The translations under genes were made by a program, and so were the position numbers. Below, in pieces: positions 17,139 to 39,455 of a DNA stretch of 64,000 nucleotides. A model generated the notes under the pieces. That model had not been told where the DNA came from. It did not search any database and saw only the letters and a program-made list of their open reading frames with translations. The DNA is from an uncultured Desulfospira sp. (GTDB taxonomy: Bacteria > Desulfobacterota > Desulfobacteria > Desulfobacterales > Desulfobacteraceae): positions 2,240,001 through 2,304,000 of the forward strand of contig OY760175.1 of the NCBI GenBank assembly GCA_963663165.1, in the 5' to 3' direction. The stretch's first letter is position 1. Every line of letters begins with the position of its first letter.

Positions 17139-18008
17139 TCAGGCAACCTGCCAGAGCATGATGCCCTGGCAGACCGTATGGTCCTGGTGAAACAAACCGT
17201 CAACCGAATGCTGTGTTACATAGGCCGTCACCTTTTCCCGGATTTGGGGGGTCGCCTCTTCATCTCCCCCCACAAAAAAAAGGATGTTGTCAACCGCCTC
17301 TTCAACAGGTTCTTTGCGGGTGATGGCCCAGGTTTCAAAACGAATCCGGGGGCGGTAGCCCAAAGCGTATACATAGCAAAAGGGGTAAATGAAATCCCAT
17401 GACTGGGATTCCAGTTCCCGGCCGGTGATTTTTTGCCACAGGGCATTGTAACTGCCCCGCATGCCGCCGCCGGAAAAGGTACTCAGGTAGCAAAATTTCC
17501 GGCTGGCTTTCATGGCCTTATCCAGGGTTTTCGGGTCATTGACCCCGGGGCTCATGGAGGCAAACACCAGGTCAAACTGGCCGGCAAGGCCCTCTTTTTG
17601 TACATCCACCTCCTGCCAGGCCCTGGGATCAATGCAAATCCGGTCGGGGCCGATCCCTTTTTGAGCCATCTTTTCCTTAAGGATATTGACCATTCCCCCG
17701 GAGGGTTCCACCGCCGTTACCGTGGCCCCGGCCTCTTCCGCCATGGGAATGGCCCAGGAGCCGGGACCGGCCCCGATATCCAGGACCCGGGTGCCGGCCC
17801 CAAGGGCCCCGGCCTCTTTGAGCATGGAAAAAATACGCTCTTTTCGCTGTACCGATTCGGGTGAATCCACTCGTTTGGCAAACCCTTTGGCGCGCCGGTC
17901 CCAGTTTTTAATAGGATCCCGGCCCGGTCTTTTTTCCGGGGCTTTTTCAAGGGCGCTGTGCCACAAATCTTTCCAGAACTCCTGGTTTTTTAGCGCAAAT
18001 AACTCCAA
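17139..18008 (-). CDS. Class I SAM-dependent methyltransferase
   Basis: WDRRA..F, VLDIGAGPG, VTAVEPS..M, FDLVFASM; TTG start with AAGGAGG RBS. Confidence 0.9.
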   Translation of the reverse strand: MELFALKNQEFWKDLWHSALEKAPEKRPGRDPIKNWDRRAKGFAKRVDSPESVQRKERIFSMLKEAGALGAGTRVLDIGAGPGSWAIPMAEEAGATVTAVEPSGGMVNILKEKMAQKGIGPDRICIDPRAWQEVDVQKEGLAGQFDLVFASMSPGVNDPKTLDKAMKASRKFCYLSTFSGGGMRGSYNALWQKITGRELESQSWDFIYPFCYVYALGYRPRIRFETWAITRKEPVEEAVDNILFFVGGDEEATPQIREKVTAYVTQHSVDGLFHQDHTVCQGIMLWQVA

Positions 18009-18209: not shown

Positions 18210-20414
18210 TTAAAGTGCCCATTTCACGCTCACGCCGACATTGACGCCCATGGCCGGATACCCCCATGATTCCTCATAATCGGAATCGGTCAGGTTGTCC
18301 CCGTACAGTTCAATGGTGGTGTGTTTGTCCAGCTGGTAGCGAAGGCTTGCCCCGAGCAGCCAGTATTCGTCCAGGGTACCCTTGGTGGTCTGGGCCGTGC
18401 TGATGGTGTAGTCCCGGTCCCCGATATAGTTAAGGGTAACATCCAGCACCAGGTTGTTTAAGATATCCCAGGACAAGCCTGCGGTGGCTTTGAGGTTGGG
18501 GATATAATCAATTTTTTCCAGCACACCGTCGGGGTCTGACGGGTCGTTGGTTTTTTCAGTCTCCTGATAAGTGGCGGAAATCTGCCCCCGGGTGGTCGAA
18601 GAAAAGGGGCAGCCGGCCGCTGCGGTCAGGCCGTATATGACGGCATCGGTGTTCAGGGTGGCCCAGGTGGAGCCCGAGGCCGTGTTCACATATACCGACT
18701 TTTGAATGATATAGTCTTTAATGTCATAGTAGTACGCGGCCAGCTTGATGAAACCGGAATTTTGAAACCGATATTGATAGGCCAGGTCAAACCCGACTTC
18801 CGATTCCGGCTTCAGGTCCACCCCGGAAAGGTAGGGCACCGTGAGTTTTCCCTGGGCTCCCCAGTAGGCTTCCGGCATGGTCGGGGTCCGGTAGTTCATG
18901 TAGGCGGCCAGGGTAATGGTCTGGGATTCATCAATGGCGTAGGTAACCGTGGCCTTGGGGGACAGCTGGCTGTTTTCCTGTTCTTCGGAGCCTTCGGGTT
19001 CATAGGCGTAACTGTCGTACCTGAGGCCGAAATCCAGGACCAGCCGGTCTGTCACAGCATATTTATCCCCTAAAAAGATGCCGGTGATATAGGCATCAGG
19101 ACCGTCTGACGAGTCAGCCATAGCCCCGGTCCACCCGTTAGGCCCGGCACAGTTATAGTTGGTGTCCACATAATTGACCTCCGTACCGCCGGAATCCATG
19201 ACCTTGTATTCAACCCCGGCCAGGACGGCGTGAGAATCAAAATCCCAGCCCAGTTTGAACTTGCCCCCCCAGCTGTTGTCCACGGTGATCTCCCGCTCAA
19301 ATACCAGATCGCCGTCCCGGGTCTGGGCCGCCCCGTCGTTGAAAGTGTCCATGGGCGATTTTTCGGCCAGGGTGCGGGCCGCCACATCGGCGTAATTTCG
19401 CTCAACACGGGTCTCATGGTTTTTAAACAGAACAAGATCAATATAGCCGTCTTTGCCGATATTCTGGTGATAATTCAGATCCAGCAGATGCCGCTTCTTT
19501 TCCCAGTAGGCCCCGTCTCCGATGATGTTCATGGAGGGGGTGGGGGCACCGCCGGCAAAATACTCGCCGGAGTTTACCGGATAGTCGCTGTCAATGGCCG
19601 TATCAAACCCGGGAAGGGTCGGGTCAGTGTCTGTGGCAGAGACCCCGTCGTCCCGGTTGGAGCGGATCAGGCCCCGTTCGGTGTCACTGTAGTTATAGCC
19701 TAAGGTCAGTTTTCCGTCCCCGGGCAGGTCCACGTACAGTTTGGGATAAATATGGGTAGAATCATAGTCATTGTTGCGCAGGTAGGCATCGGCCTGCTGG
19801 TGGCTGCCGCCGACGCTCACGCCAATGCCTTTCCATTTCTGGGCGTATGCGGCCCGGATGTTGTGAAAATCATGGACCCCTTCCCAGCCGCCGGTGGTGG
19901 CGTAAAAATTAAAACTCGGATCTTCGGTGGGGGCCTTGGTATAGGCGTTGATCACCCCGCCCAAGGCATTGTTGCCGTATTCGATGGAACTGCCGCCCTT
20001 GATGATCTCAAGGCGCTCGATATTGTCCAGGGGGATGGTACTGAAATCGATATAGTTTCCCCCGGCAATGCCCGTGGAACTGATGTTCCGCCCGTCAAGG
20101 TTGAGCATGATCCGCTTGCTTTCAAATCCCCGGATGGAGATCACATCCCCGCTGTCCCCCATGCTGGATTTGCGTTTAAAGGATATTTCCGTATCGTTGA
20201 ACAGATAATCGGCAATGTTGTTGCTCCGGCTTTTTTCCTGAACCCGAAGGCTTGACGTGTTCAGGTTTTCTTCCTCGGCCTCTCCGGTTACGGTCACCGG
20301 TTCAAGGTAGATCACATCGGTCATCAAATTTTCCTCTGCACCCAAACAATCCGTACTTAAGATGAAAATCAACATAACCGCTCCAATACAACGCCGCATT
20401 TCTCTCCTCCTCAT
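18210..20414 (-). CDS. TonB-dependent outer-membrane receptor
   Basis: Signal peptide, PVTVTG TonB box, ISIRGF, IERLEIIKG..S..YG..ALGGVIN, LKPE, DNLTD..Y, C-terminal beta-strand. Confidence 0.95.
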   Translation of the reverse strand: MRRREMRRCIGAVMLIFILSTDCLGAEENLMTDVIYLEPVTVTGEAEEENLNTSSLRVQEKSRSNNIADYLFNDTEISFKRKSSMGDSGDVISIRGFESKRIMLNLDGRNISSTGIAGGNYIDFSTIPLDNIERLEIIKGGSSIEYGNNALGGVINAYTKAPTEDPSFNFYATTGGWEGVHDFHNIRAAYAQKWKGIGVSVGGSHQQADAYLRNNDYDSTHIYPKLYVDLPGDGKLTLGYNYSDTERGLIRSNRDDGVSATDTDPTLPGFDTAIDSDYPVNSGEYFAGGAPTPSMNIIGDGAYWEKKRHLLDLNYHQNIGKDGYIDLVLFKNHETRVERNYADVAARTLAEKSPMDTFNDGAAQTRDGDLVFEREITVDNSWGGKFKLGWDFDSHAVLAGVEYKVMDSGGTEVNYVDTNYNCAGPNGWTGAMADSSDGPDAYITGIFLGDKYAVTDRLVLDFGLRYDSYAYEPEGSEEQENSQLSPKATVTYAIDESQTITLAAYMNYRTPTMPEAYWGAQGKLTVPYLSGVDLKPESEVGFDLAYQYRFQNSGFIKLAAYYYDIKDYIIQKSVYVNTASGSTWATLNTDAVIYGLTAAAGCPFSSTTRGQISATYQETEKTNDPSDPDGVLEKIDYIPNLKATAGLSWDILNNLVLDVTLNYIGDRDYTISTAQTTKGTLDEYWLLGASLRYQLDKHTTIELYGDNLTDSDYEESWGYPAMGVNVGVSVKWAL

Positions 20415-20442: not shown

Positions 20443-21555
20443 TTAGGGCCCAAGGGTGATGGCCGTAAAGCCCCCATAAAGTTCGGCCATTTTTTTATAA
20501 AGGGGGCAGCCCAGCATAAAGGTGTAAATCTCGTCGGCTTTGCGCTCAGGGTCTATCTGCTTAAAGGCTTTGGGGTAGAGCAGCTTGCCCATGAAATAGA
20601 GATCAACGATGGCCGTTTCAATGTTCCGGTAATAGGCCACATCCGGCAGCTGGACATATACCTTCTTATTTTTTACCGATGAAAGGGCCTCATAGAATGA
20701 GGGATTTTTCGCATAATCCTGTTTCACCACCCCTAAGCCGCCGGCATCAATGACAATGATATCCGGGTCCCATTGAATCAGCTTTTCTTTATCGATCATG
20801 ACCGGACCGGCTGTGGAGAGCTCGTCTGCCACGTTTTTCGCCCCAATGGCCTCAAGGAAACCCGACCGGCAGGTCGTGCTTTCAATGCCGTGCCGCCCTT
20901 TATAACTCAAGGCGCCAAGATAGAGCTTCGGTTTCTCTTCTTCGGGAATATTGGCGGTCAGTTCAGCCAGTTCAGCCTTACAGCCTTCCATAAACCTGAC
21001 CACATCACTGGCCCGGTCCTCTTTGCCGGTGACCTTTCCAATGATCCGGATGGCCCGGTAAATGGCCTCATCAAAGCCCTGGGCACTGCCCTGGCTGACA
21101 ATAACCACCGGGACACCGGTTCTTTGCTCCAGCTGTTCCAGGCTTTTAAGGTCCATGATATCGCCGGCAATAATCACATCCGGGTTAACCTGCATAACCA
21201 GTTCCGGGTCCGGATCATCGGGATGGCCTTCCCCGATGACGGGCAGGGTTTCCAGAGACGGATTGGCCATAATATAAGGCCGGCCCGTGGCCACGCGCTG
21301 CTGTTTTCTTTCAACCCCCGCCAGCCGGTCTGTACCGGCCACATAGGTATAAAGGCGCAGGGCCGAACCAATGGCAATGACCCGGTTAATTTCCCCTTTG
21401 AGGGTGATGGGCCGGCCGGCCATATCGGCAAACGCAACCGTATCAGACATATTCATGGCCTTGTCCTGGGATGCCGCGCCCGCGAAGCCGGTGCTTCCCC
21501 AAAACATCATCAATGCCAATACCGGCAGGATGACGGCCCTTTTCAGATGGCTCAT
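20443..21555 (-). CDS. ABC substrate-binding protein (Fe-siderophore/cobalamin class)
   Basis: Signal peptide, D.AGR.I, RVIA, LP.IG, E.VM..NPDVII, E.LI.WDPD.I, VKNKKVY. Confidence 0.92.
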   Translation of the reverse strand: MSHLKRAVILPVLALMMFWGSTGFAGAASQDKAMNMSDTVAFADMAGRPITLKGEINRVIAIGSALRLYTYVAGTDRLAGVERKQQRVATGRPYIMANPSLETLPVIGEGHPDDPDPELVMQVNPDVIIAGDIMDLKSLEQLEQRTGVPVVIVSQGSAQGFDEAIYRAIRIIGKVTGKEDRASDVVRFMEGCKAELAELTANIPEEEKPKLYLGALSYKGRHGIESTTCRSGFLEAIGAKNVADELSTAGPVMIDKEKLIQWDPDIIVIDAGGLGVVKQDYAKNPSFYEALSSVKNKKVYVQLPDVAYYRNIETAIVDLYFMGKLLYPKAFKQIDPERKADEIYTFMLGCPLYKKMAELYGGFTAITLGP

Positions 21556-21570
21556 TTATAGACTCCTTTT

Positions 21571-21666
21571 TTTTATATGAAAGTCTCACTAACATCTTGA
21601 GAGGACTTTCATTATTTGTTGTGGGCGGTTCTTGGTTGGATAACCAAGGCGGCCCGTGGCCGTTAT
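21571..21666 (-). repeat. Family 1 three-hairpin dispersed repeat inside the ABC operon
   Basis: Minus strand ATAACGGCCACGGGCCGCCTTGGTTATCCAACCAAG...TGAGACTTTCATATAAAA, directly before the GGAG RBS of the binding protein. Confidence 0.9.
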
Positions 21667-21690
21667 ATGGTTCTTTCCGGGTTTACACGG

Positions 21691-22443
21691 TTACCGGGGT
21701 ATGATGACCGGCATACCGCGAAAGTGATGGACATCAACATCCAGTCCGTAAACCTCAAGGATGTTCTCCGTGGTGATGATTTCCCTGCCCCCGGCCGCAA
21801 AAATCCCCCCGTCCTTCATGAAGATAAATTTAGTGGCAAAGCGTAAGGCAAGGTTGATATCATGCATGGTGACCACAACGGATATCTGCTGCCGGCGGAT
21901 GATCCCATTGATAATCCGGGCCGTGTCCATCTGATTTTTCATGTCAAGGTTGCTGGTGGGCTCATCCATTAAAAGCACCCGGGGCTGCTGGGAAAGGGCC
22001 CTGGCAATGACCACCTTTTGAAGCTCACCGCCGGAAAGTTCATCCAGATAGCGCATGGCATAGGGGCTCAGCCCCATGGTCCTTAACACCTCATCCACAA
22101 TTTTAAGATCCCGGCTGCCGGCGTCCCATTTAAAATACGGTTTTCTGCCCAGGAGCACCGCGTTGAAAACCGTGCAGTGGGTGGCCTGCTGATGCTGGGC
22201 AATGTATCCGATTCTTTGGGCAAGCTGAATGCCCGGTATCCGGTTGGAATCCTGTCCCTCAATCAGGATGGTGCCCTTTTGGGGCTTAAGGATACGGTCC
22301 AGGCATTTGAGCAGTGTGGACTTGCCGGTGCCGTTCTTGCCCAGAATGCTGATGCAGTCGCCCTGGCCGACGGAAAAGCAGATGTCGTTTAAGACATCCC
22401 GGCCGGGATAGGAAAATGTCAGGCCCTCAACCGTGAGAATCAT
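21691..22443 (-). CDS. ABC transporter ATPase (FecE/BtuD class)
   Basis: GKNGTGKST, LSGGELQ, LLMDEPT, MHDINLA. Confidence 0.95.
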   Translation of the reverse strand: MILTVEGLTFSYPGRDVLNDICFSVGQGDCISILGKNGTGKSTLLKCLDRILKPQKGTILIEGQDSNRIPGIQLAQRIGYIAQHQQATHCTVFNAVLLGRKPYFKWDAGSRDLKIVDEVLRTMGLSPYAMRYLDELSGGELQKVVIARALSQQPRVLLMDEPTSNLDMKNQMDTARIINGIIRRQQISVVVTMHDINLALRFATKFIFMKDGGIFAAGGREIITTENILEVYGLDVDVHHFRGMPVIIPR

Positions 22444-23531
22444 CTTGATGCCCCGCCGCCTTTCATTAACAGGTACAGGAACATGGGACCGCCCAGGAAT
22501 GCCGTAACCGCCCCGACCGGGAGGGTCTGGGGGCTTAAGAGGACCCGGGCCAGGGTATCGGATACCAAAAGAATCAATATGCCGACAATGGCCGAGGCTG
22601 TAATTAGAAACCGTTTATCGTTGCCGATAATCCGTTTGGTAATCTGGGGGGCCACCAGGCCCACAAAGGCGATCATGCCCAAAAATGAGACGCAGACCGC
22701 TGCAATCAGGGCGGATGCAAACATCCCGCCCAGCCTCACCCGCTCAATGTTTACCCCCAGGCTTCTGGCATTGTCCTCTCCGCTGTCAATGGCGTTGTAT
22801 TCCCACTTGTGCCAGATAAAATAGATAAAGGAGAGCAGGACCACCGCCGTCATGATCCAGATCTCGTGCCAGGATGCCCGGCCAAGGTCCCCGAAAGTCC
22901 AGAAGACAACGGCCGCCACACTGGTGGTATCTTCGGCAAAGTATTGAATGATCATGGTGCCGGCACCAAATAGCGAGCTGATGGCCACACCGGCAAGGAT
23001 AATGCTTTCCGGTGAAAACCTGCGCAGCATGGACAGGCTCAGGATAATGCCGGTGGCTGTTAAGGCGAACCCTAAGGCCATTATCGTTACCATGTACGGG
23101 TTGGATATGGTGACCTGGCCGATACCGGTGCTTAACACGCTGCCCGCCCCCAGCAGAATAATGGCCACATTCGCCCCGAATGCGGCCGCATTTGAGATCC
23201 CAAGGGTAGACGGCGAAGCAAGAGGATTGCGAAGGGTGTTTTGCATGATGCAGCCGGATATGGCAAGCCCTGCCCCGGCAACGATTCCCGCCGCGACCCG
23301 GGGCAGGCGGATGTTCCGGATCAGCATGACGGCCTTTGCATCCCCCAAGCCCAAAAGGGCTTTTAAAATCTTTGGGATGCCGATATTCACGGCCCCTGCA
23401 TTGATGGCAACAAAAAACATCACCGCCGCCAGGGCAAGAAGCAATACCATCAGCCGCCTCTTTTTACGCAACGCGCCATGGTAAGATTCAATTGTCGATT
23501 CAAACAGTACCGGGTTTTCAGCCATGTCCAT
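22440..23531 (-). CDS. FecCD/BtuC-family permease
   Basis: IRLPR, G.GLA.SG..MQ..LRNPLASP, GE.NA.SLG, FVGL.AP, PVG. Confidence 0.95.
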   Translation of the reverse strand: MDMAENPVLFESTIESYHGALRKKRRLMVLLLALAAVMFFVAINAGAVNIGIPKILKALLGLGDAKAVMLIRNIRLPRVAAGIVAGAGLAISGCIMQNTLRNPLASPSTLGISNAAAFGANVAIILLGAGSVLSTGIGQVTISNPYMVTIMALGFALTATGIILSLSMLRRFSPESIILAGVAISSLFGAGTMIIQYFAEDTTSVAAVVFWTFGDLGRASWHEIWIMTAVVLLSFIYFIWHKWEYNAIDSGEDNARSLGVNIERVRLGGMFASALIAAVCVSFLGMIAFVGLVAPQITKRIIGNDKRFLITASAIVGILILLVSDTLARVLLSPQTLPVGAVTAFLGGPMFLYLLMKGGGASR

Positions 23532-23593: not shown

Positions 23594-23655
23594 AAAAAAA
23601 GCCACGAAGTATGCCGGGCAATCTGAACGATTGCCCGTGGCAGCCTTCGTGGCTT
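23594..23655 (-). terminator. Intrinsic terminator in the 5' leader of the uptake operon
   Basis: Minus strand AAGCCACGAAG..(GGGCAATC..GATTGCCC)..CTTCGTGGC-TTTTTTT, ~60 nt before the permease start. Confidence 0.85.
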
Positions 23656-23659
23656 AATT

Positions 23660-23830
23660 TTTTTTAGCAGCTGTGCCCTTTCGGGCACCATAACACTTGC
23701 AGGTGGTGGCGGTTTCAGGCAGACCGCCTGAAAGCTTTGATCCCGAAAAGCCCTCAGTTGAACTGCCCGAACACCTTCAATCTTTCATCAGGAATAGCGC
23801 GAACTTTCATATCCGCATTGTGAGATATGC
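23660..23830 (-). ncRNA. Candidate cis-regulatory RNA (riboswitch/attenuator-like), class not recognised
   Basis: Several stems, including GTGCCC-GAAA-GGGCAC and alternative pairings of CTGCCTGAA; lies between a TTGACA element (~23864-23869) and the terminator. Confidence 0.5.
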
Positions 23831-23979
23831 GTATAGTAAAATGAGATTGTTGTTGTCAACACTTTTTTGTTGTCATAGACACTTTATAGGCAGAACGCAA
23901 TTGGGGAAACCGCCACTTAATGCTGCGGGATATATTCTTTCCAGGGCCGAAAGTTAAGGTAACTTATGAAATTTGCAGG

Positions 23980-24486
23980 CTAAGGTTCCAGCGAGAATAC
24001 CTTTTCCCCGAGGTTTTCAAGCAGCTGTACCAGATTTCTTTTCAGCTCCAGAACCGTCTCTTCCTCGATCCCTTTAAGAGCGTCTTTCAACACCTGGCTG
24101 CTGATCTGGCACAGGGGATTTTGTAACGCACGGCCTTCTTTGGTCAGAAAGCAACGGGCGAGCCGGCCGTCATTGGCATCGGCTTTTTTGGCCACCAGCG
24201 CCTTTTGTTCAAGGCTTCGAATGATACGGCTTGTATTGTGGCGGTCTTTGAACACCCGCCGTCCCAGATCGCTTTGGTAAATACCGTCCTCATCCCAAAG
24301 CTGGCTGAGGACCATGTACTGTTCTGTGGAAATCTCATAACCGGAAGCGATAATCGCCTGGGAGAAATGTTTCCTTAAGCTCAGGGCTGCCACATTGATC
24401 AGAAAACCGGTACTGATGTCTTCAAGCTTAACGGTTTGCAATGGGTTATGGACAGAACCGGCCGGGTATGTTTTACGGATCATCAT
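23980..24486 (-). CDS. MarR-family transcriptional regulator
   Basis: IS.EQY.VL..LW..DGI.QSDL, SRII..LE.K.LV, D.R....FLT.EG. Confidence 0.9.
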   Translation of the reverse strand: MMIRKTYPAGSVHNPLQTVKLEDISTGFLINVAALSLRKHFSQAIIASGYEISTEQYMVLSQLWDEDGIYQSDLGRRVFKDRHNTSRIIRSLEQKALVAKKADANDGRLARCFLTKEGRALQNPLCQISSQVLKDALKGIEEETVLELKRNLVQLLENLGEKVFSLEP

Positions 24487-38996: not shown

Positions 38997-39455
38997 TAAC
39001 ACCAAGGACATGAAGATTGATTCCCCGGCATATATTCTTCATGGACTTCATGGTGTTTTTTAATTAGATTCTTGCAGTGCCGATGGATATCAATCATAAC
39101 CACCAGAATTCATGTTATATTCTTTAAAGAATGAATTCGCCCTGGGGGCACTGCTGAACAGTTATACAAATATACAAATTTTATAGAATGCGGTAAAAAT
39201 TCGTCTTAAAGTCAATCAATTCAAGGTATGTTTACTTTTTAACAGCCAAAGAAACCGAATACAAGCTCAAATTGCAGATCCATCTTTCTTTGACGATTTA
39301 GTTCTTGCTAACCGGTCATATTTCAACTATTTTAACCCTTGCACAATCGGAACAAGGCCCCAATAATTTTCAAACCAGTTGCCAATAACCCGACAACTTA
39401 TGACACCCGGATTTTCTCACACCATTTTTTCACCCCACCATTTTAGGAGACCCCT

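Follow-up and report, generated by a model that had tools for sequence, protein, structure and literature searches.

The leader of an uptake operon in an uncultured Desulfospira sp. (GenBank assembly GCA_963663165.1, contig OY760175.1, positions 2,240,001 to 2,304,000) is a real, if atypical, member of a widespread and uncatalogued family of attenuators that is probably nickel-responsive and read by a protein. The 64,000 nucleotides analysed are called the window here, and coordinates refer to them unless another genome is named. With moderate confidence, we propose that this minus-strand leader is a dual-hairpin antiterminator resembling the targets of ANTAR proteins, that it replaces the regulator NikR, and that it is off by default and on in low nickel, with DUF3842 as its probable reader and CooT as its probable sensor. 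Binding, signal and direction of control are what we infer. As comparison shows, the family sits before genes predicted to serve nickel-type uptake and a nickel-free [FeFe]-hydrogenase, mostly in genomes that lack NikR and carry DUF3842 and CooT.

An earlier, sequence-only reading of the window had taken the leader for a cis-regulatory attenuator before an uptake operon, with dependence on a protein among the options. That much is supported, but the working parts it proposed are not. When leaders of relatives were collected, as it had suggested, the middle part was not conserved, whereas the terminator 5' arm and a GAA-loop hairpin proved to be conserved features of the family. What had been missed is that these two elements, the hairpin lying near the predicted +1, define a genome-wide family found in several phyla.

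Layout and fold of the leader

On the minus strand, TTGACA (23859-23854) and a -10-like hexamer come first; a leader of about 230 nt follows, and then an intrinsic terminator whose end lies 63 nt before the ATG of a permease gene (23531). All of the elements listed in the sequence-only reading were found on this strand, namely the TTGACA, the leader, the hairpins (including the GAGGGCTTTT/AAAGCTTTC stem), an upstream open reading frame (uORF) and a terminator about 60 nt before the first gene. The -35 element (23854..23859) was detected in the sequence and by a promoter scan and is identical in the relative G001; a stricter promoter scan did not list this promoter. The -10-like hexamer (23830..23838) is either TACTAT (spacer 15) or TATACG (spacer 18), a consensus match only, at 4/6 positions each, and transcription would start near 23825. 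The possibility had been raised that a promoter downstream of the terminator drives the operon; we looked for one, and the promoter scan found no promoter-like pair there.

The first GAA-loop hairpin, H1 (GCGGAU-AUGAA(A)-GUUCGC, 23799..23816), has either a bulge or a six-base loop and is an imperfect member of its kind. It folds at every transcript length tried, with a z of only -2.0 in isolation, and its loop lies 49 nt from the -35 element. The second, H2 (AGCC-ACGAA-GGCU, 23642..23654), is the antiterminator hairpin; it overlaps the 5' arm of the terminator and has the family core GCCACGAAGG at 23653-23644. When the leader was folded by transcript length, H2 formed ahead of the transcription of the terminator 3' arm. 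The terminator itself (23594..23655, 7-U tail, -41.6 kcal/mol, z -8.9) is the default state and accounts for most of the stability of the whole leader against shuffles (z -5.9). The H2 state is less stable by 12.6 kcal/mol, and read-through therefore needs a helper. The leader has a terminator 5' arm of the form GCCAHGRAGG with a paired 3' arm and a U-run, and the exact family pattern is matched at 23653-23596 (0 matches in 100 shuffles of the window). It also stands before metal-uptake genes in a genome with DUF3842 and CooT and without NikR.

This leader is an atypical copy of the family, with an imperfect H1 and a long insert. About 100 nt of the 152-nt distance between H1 and H2 are folded into two hairpins and the remainder is roughly the family median of 46; folding-out of the middle hairpins appears to bring H1 to about its usual distance from H2. 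The smaller of the two (GUGCCC-GAAA-GGGCAC, 23673..23688, z -3.6) is identical in G001 and is not a family feature. The longer one (23697..23780, -35.9 kcal/mol, z -2.7) is lineage-specific, occurs in G001 only, and is probably a folded-out spacer. In the sequence-only reading this middle segment was a switch with competing distal and proximal pairings. The ensemble does not bear this out: the distal pairing has p 0.8-1.0, and both the proximal pairing and GGCGGT/ACCGCC have p 0.0. At none of the transcript lengths folded does the segment pair with the terminator, and the changes in G001 break both alternative pairings with no compensation; one of them makes a better outer stem for the long hairpin. 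A DNA search with the whole leader among 60 relatives found it in G001 only. For the middle segment, no non-coding homologue was confirmed in 200 genomes of the class; of three weak matches, those in G053 and G138 lie in coding sequence and the one in G109 is 21 nt long. The segment and a genome-specific repeat have a short stretch in common, but the segment is not a full copy.

Attenuation by way of the 18-codon uORF (MKVRAIPDERLKVFGQFN, 23754..23810) also found no support. Its Shine-Dalgarno pairing (-3.3 kcal/mol) is not usable, its region is unpaired with the terminator, and its ATG coincides with the loop of the conserved H1. This leader shows no translated uORF with regulatory codons overlapping an antiterminator, the mark of a leader-peptide attenuator. 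G001 has the uORF too, with a single amino acid changed (DNA 95% identical), and the frame is probably incidental. We separately considered whether the core could be read as a His-Glu-Gly leader peptide and rejected this, since in the present leader the core is preceded by a stop codon and some of the family's leaders lack the necessary length.

The impression that no known riboswitch core is present was confirmed with Rfam 15. The leader reached the gathering threshold of no riboswitch class (cobalamin, Moco, NiCo, TPP, FMN, SAM, lysine and others), and nothing in the window reached a gathering score; at E<=10 the sole match was a chance MIR169 on the opposite strand. At 12 other family loci there was no Rfam match at the sites, and that the scan works is clear from a cobalamin match elsewhere in L147.

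A conserved core and two GAA loops define the family

Weak nhmmer matches in the window's own genome (G000) lay in the leaders of other uptake operons. Common to these is a terminator 5' arm GCCA(C/T/A)GAAGG (GCCAYGAAGG), which can refold as a small ACGAA-loop hairpin. The core was tested in a non-circular way, by a search of G000 for hairpins followed by a T-run in which only the base of the stem was fixed. The continuation GAAGG occurred in 11 of 40 matches (two of the 11 are the same terminator read on its two strands), against 2 of 40 for the next most frequent 5-mer, so that the core is not explained by pairing alone. It refolds as GCC-AYGAA-GGY, with G1 paired to position 11 in 93%.

The further counts refer to 159 unique sites, in which antisense partners of two-way terminators are included. 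TTGAC(A/T/G) is present no more than 200 nt upstream in 97 of them. An upstream hairpin with a loop of 4-5 nt ending in GAA was found at 81 sites (shuffles: mean 7.1, maximum 14), and a GAA-loop hairpin inside the terminator loop at 32 (shuffles: mean 1.1). In the 97 leaders with a TTGAC element the loop ends in GAA in 57, the next commonest triplet accounting for 7, and the stems of this hairpin vary at every pair. The start of the GAA loop lies at a median of 48 nt from the -35 element (interquartile range 45-52). The loops of the family are AGAA, UGAA, AUGAA, AAGAA and ACGAA. Some leaders have less than 20 nt before the core, and at several sites where the core is near the promoter (L055, L073, L128, L137) the second hairpin lies inside the terminator loop. 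With the second hairpin either upstream or in the terminator loop, two GAA loops would therefore be exposed in the read-through state either way. The site comparison shows both loops as conserved features on freely varying stems.

Distribution and predicted regulon

The strict pattern was present in 34 of 301 sampled genomes of the window's phylum (reversed-pattern control: 0), and the loose pattern in 100 of them (control: 14). In the named collection at least 122 stretches were matched, from Desulfobacterota, Nitrospirota, NC10, Bacillota and others. Around 115 sites we found genes for CbiM, CbiQ, DUF4198, SBP_bac_5, TonB/ExbBD, FecCD, FmdE, CooT, DUF3842 and Ni_insertion; for the downstream-gene clusters, 52 representatives out of 576 frames were scanned. 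All 20 of the 20 CbiM-family genes behind sites start with MHIPDG, MHISEG, MHISDG or MHVPDG, and we take starts of this type to mark NikM rather than CbiM. DUF4198 is presumably NikK-like.

Scans of G000 gave many candidates (96 matches in one of them), many of which were insertion-sequence copies or chance hits, and 17 sites were picked by eye. A perfect upstream GAA-loop hairpin is present at 11 of these 17. Seven of the operons are led by TonB receptors, and DUF4198, FmdE, methyltransferases and metal ABC transporters also occur; the SBP_bac_5 transporters have NikA or Opp5A as best profiles, below cut-off. HydF and a group A [FeFe]-hydrogenase (HydA) also lie behind sites, both above curated cut-offs, HydA at 1.4 kb from its site and separated from it by an unannotated frame. 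Of the two nikM-type operons, one is preceded by a dual-hairpin leader of variant form.

Two further observations were made in this genome. At G000:C1:1290615 and 1291959 (L040), two family terminators stand in series around an AraC regulator before a TonB/ABC operon, which may be a nested layer of control. A second small repeat (GAAAGRCTGAAGG...) has 45 pattern matches in G000:C1 (control: 4), e.g. at 3632454, 5717763 and 5801559; its opposite strand often has the family core, and one copy is inside an FmdE leader.

Co-occurrence with DUF3842 and CooT

NikR_C was found neither in G000 (a control search was positive in 5/14) nor in 158 of the 301 phylum genomes. NikR is present in 20 of 100 genomes with the motif versus 123 of 201 others. 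Sorted by both proteins, the motif occurs in 76/108 genomes without NikR and with CooT, in 15/75 with both, in 4/50 with neither, and in 5/68 with NikR alone. G000 has three CooT genes and two DUF3842 genes, each DUF3842 gene being followed by a cooT.

DUF3842 was searched for in 217 of the 301 genomes: all 100 with the motif, all 32 motif-negative genomes with CooT and without NikR, 45 of 60 motif-negative ones with CooT and NikR, and 40 of 109 motif-negative ones without CooT. It was present in 85 of the 100 motif genomes, in 2 of the 45 and in 0 of the 40. DUF3842 is thus more tightly linked to the motif than CooT is, and also more strictly separated from NikR. Among the Bacillota motif genomes tested, DUF3842 was found in 5/5 and NikR in 0/5. 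An arrangement of site, DUF3842, CooT, site and cbiM recurs, and at 15 loci, which were chosen for their nearness to CooT genes or sites, the DUF3842-CooT pair often follows a site immediately, or is flanked by two sites and precedes cbiM.

Some copies of these genes stand apart from the motif. A DUF3842-cooT pair behind a kinase-like gene (G000:C1:5711963-5712800) and a lone cooT among housekeeping genes (G000:C1:1483081-1483275) have no family terminator that we could see nearby; they are candidates for constitutive copies of the regulator. In L221 (G383:C39) and L161, cooT precedes the site, and the place of DUF3842 before cooT is taken by a frame of 197 aa for which Pfam gave no match. G383 gave no DUF3842 match, and the frame is possibly an alternative partner.

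Candidate reader and sensor

In CooT, Met1-Cys2 and His55 are invariant in 19/19 sequences. Its structure model matches solved CooT structures. CooT was also considered as a possible Sm/Hfq-like RNA binder; Foldseek at E<=0.001 listed CooT structures only. Binding of nickel by Cys2 is described in a recent preprint (bioRxiv 10.64898/2026.03.10.710785). DUF3842 has no invariant Cys or His, and its predicted fold is a small Rossmann domain with generic structure matches (best Z 9.2). A sequence search gave no solved relative of DUF3842, and the Atlas structure clusters returned were only the families' own. These sequence and fold data would fit CooT as sensor and DUF3842 as reader.

Proposed mechanism

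As sequence and folding show, a transcript from the TTGACA promoter forms H1, then H2, and then the strong terminator, which is built with H2's own bases. Since the terminator reuses these bases, the default is OFF, with no antiterminator made of RNA only. In the mechanism we propose, a dimeric protein would, when nickel is scarce, clamp the two GAA loops and hold H2 shut, allowing the polymerase to read through. More speculatively, DUF3842 would be this reader and nickel-loaded CooT might switch it off. On a larger scale, many anaerobes of several phyla might have replaced NikR by nickel sensing at the RNA level, with the nickel chaperone CooT as the sensing subunit as well and the uncharacterised Rossmann-fold protein DUF3842 as a new class of RNA-binding antiterminator on tandem GAA-loop hairpins, so that nickel uptake and a nickel-free hydrogenase are switched on together; we give this broader idea slightly less than even chances.

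Sulfate reducers and other anaerobes depend on nickel for [NiFe]-hydrogenases and CO dehydrogenase, and the family offers a testable answer to how nickel is regulated in the many genomes without NikR_C. If the proposal is true, there would be a candidate function for DUF3842, a possible second one for CooT, and a transition-metal-sensing protein antiterminator. The motif could also serve as an annotation tag, by which TonB receptors, FecCD systems, FmdE proteins and methyltransferases that are otherwise anonymous, those of the present operon included, become probable nickel-chelate uptake genes.

Comparison with known systems

The targets of the ANTAR proteins EutV, NasR and AmiR (PMC3369931) share with the family a pair of small hairpins whose loops are conserved while their stems vary, a second hairpin that overlaps the terminator 5' arm, a default-off state and many sites per genome. 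They differ in their six-base loops with A1 and G4: the family has WGAA or AHGAA loops of 4-5 nt, mostly closed by C-G, a longer and more variable spacer, nickel uptake as its target and DUF3842/CooT as the candidate reader. In the present leader the H2 loop is ACGAA, and H1, read as the six bases AUGAAA, has its G at position 3. A search for the ANTAR protein PF03861 gave no match in G000, and the control search also matched in 0/14 genomes.

The predicted NikR regulon of delta-proteobacteria includes nikMQO, nikK/L and hydAB (PMC545781). The targets are thus alike, with a nikM-type ECF transporter, accessory periplasmic proteins and a Fe-only hydrogenase, but NikR is a DNA-binding repressor and the family would act at an RNA terminator. 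At our locus the best NikR-box match has 9-10 of 14 positions (shuffle mean 9.1), so that no NikR promoter is apparent.

CAT/RAT (BglG, LicT, SacY) and HutP attenuators also have a leader-binding protein that decides whether the terminator forms (PMC12591593). The same holds for PyrR attenuators. All of these use other RNA elements and proteins, and their signals are sugars, histidine or nucleotides. The word 'nickel' is absent from the main text of this 2025 review of RNA-binding antiterminators, as far as that text was available (PMC12591593), and in the available text of a nickel survey of cable bacteria NikR appears only in the references and no riboswitch is mentioned (PMC11247825). With NiCo/czcD, Moco and cobalamin riboswitches, as with the family, metal-transport genes are preceded by a leader that ends in an intrinsic terminator; unlike these riboswitches, the family has no Rfam match and no conserved multi-helix aptamer. 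In the literature searched we found no report of a transition-metal-sensing protein antiterminator and no description of the motif; these were mostly open texts without supplements, so that RNA-motif catalogues outside Rfam could hold it.

Contrary evidence and alternative explanations

Several observations weigh against the proposal of a nickel-responsive antiterminator read by DUF3842. The H1 of this copy fails a strict hairpin test and lies 152 nt from the core, the family maximum being 148 (in a 200-nt window). Covariation in H2 is modest (0.55 for one flanking pair vs 0.45 when permuted, the outer pairs being at chance). The other nikM-type operon of G000 shows no site, and among 28 loci encoding homologous binding proteins only 3 had a site in the short flanking sequence. 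No protein of the present operon reaches an equivalog cut-off, so its substrate is unnamed, and the CbiM profiles carry the name of cobalt transporters. DUF3842 is also present in 28 of the 32 motif-negative genomes with CooT and without NikR, which means either that variant sites were missed by the pattern or that the mismatch is real. Conversely, 15 of the 100 motif genomes lack DUF3842; 10 of these have single raw matches, and some of the 15 may be chance or incomplete. Thirteen genomes have both DUF3842 and NikR. The genomes are related, so that significance is overstated by the p-values and the co-occurrence counts are inflated. Finally, the DUF3842 structure matches include no RNA-binding relative, and Foldseek with the CooT model at E<=0.001 gave no match beyond CooT.

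The same attenuator family might have a different reader, e.g. a NusG paralogue or a Nus-type processive antitermination complex loading at H1, with DUF3842 and CooT being merely regulated nickel-handling genes. The fixed distance of H1 from the promoter would suit a loading site, some sites are operon-internal terminators without H1 (G000:1291959), and neither DUF3842 nor CooT has a known RNA-binding fold. However, processive antitermination does not need a core at every terminator, where it is nevertheless kept, and DUF3842 accompanies the motif in two phyla and tends not to occur with NikR. We regard another reader as unlikely.

With DUF3842 and CooT kept in their roles, the signal could instead be a shortage of cobalt, iron or metal chelates in general. 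Many targets are FecCD/TonB systems without an assigned substrate, and the cobalt name of the CbiM models points the same way. Against this stand the avoidance of NikR by the family, the control of [FeFe]-hydrogenase and HydF, the starts of the CbiM-family proteins, which we assume to be of the NikM type, and the lack of any Fur-like box above shuffle level at this locus; such a signal seems to us still less probable than another reader.

A metal or metabolite riboswitch with the middle region as its aptamer, or a minimal Ni2+-binding RNA, would agree with the highly structured leader and its missing Rfam match. It is improbable for a family that shares only short loops on variable stems, in some leaders with hardly any sequence before the core, and whose middle region is here neither conserved nor coupled to the terminator. 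A constitutive terminator ending the marR transcript, or ribosome-mediated attenuation via the uORF, is very improbable indeed: no terminator-like site was found by scans between marR and the promoter, and the uORF is open in both genomes with the leader, but the promoter lies upstream of the terminator with none seen downstream, the same order of promoter, H1 and terminator recurs behind unrelated upstream genes, and the uORF lacks Shine-Dalgarno pairing.

The operon and its surroundings

All genes of the operon lie on the minus strand. The first regulated gene encodes the FecCD-family permease (22440..23531; PF01032, E 2e-86) and is followed by genes for an ABC ATPase (21691..22443; PF00005), a periplasmic binding protein of the Peripla_BP_2 family (20443..21555; PF01497), a TonB-dependent receptor (18210..20414; PF00593 and PF07715) and a class I SAM-dependent methyltransferase (17139..18008; PF13649). 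The MarR-family gene upstream (23980..24486, minus strand; PF01047) is context only. The best NCBIfam matches of the receptor (18210-20414) are PUIUD/CU/PCPU/FCYXU motif-type receptors, all below cut-off, and the gene has no in-frame TGA.

Between the ATPase and binding-protein genes (about 21577-21670, plus strand) there is a copy of a REP-like repeat of about 90 nt, whose pattern gave 137 matches in G000 (control: 0); many of these copies stand in tandem, and many lie close to family sites. Another copy adjoins a terminator at 39007 of the window (plus strand, G000:C1:2279007), which has a core-like arm (GACATGAAGA) and precedes a phosphorylase-like gene; this terminator was excluded from the family set. 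Elsewhere in the genome (G000:C1, about 665600-665850, plus strand), a Phe-rich leader peptide and a terminator precede a gene that by eye resembles DAHP synthase, in the manner of a classic amino-acid attenuator.
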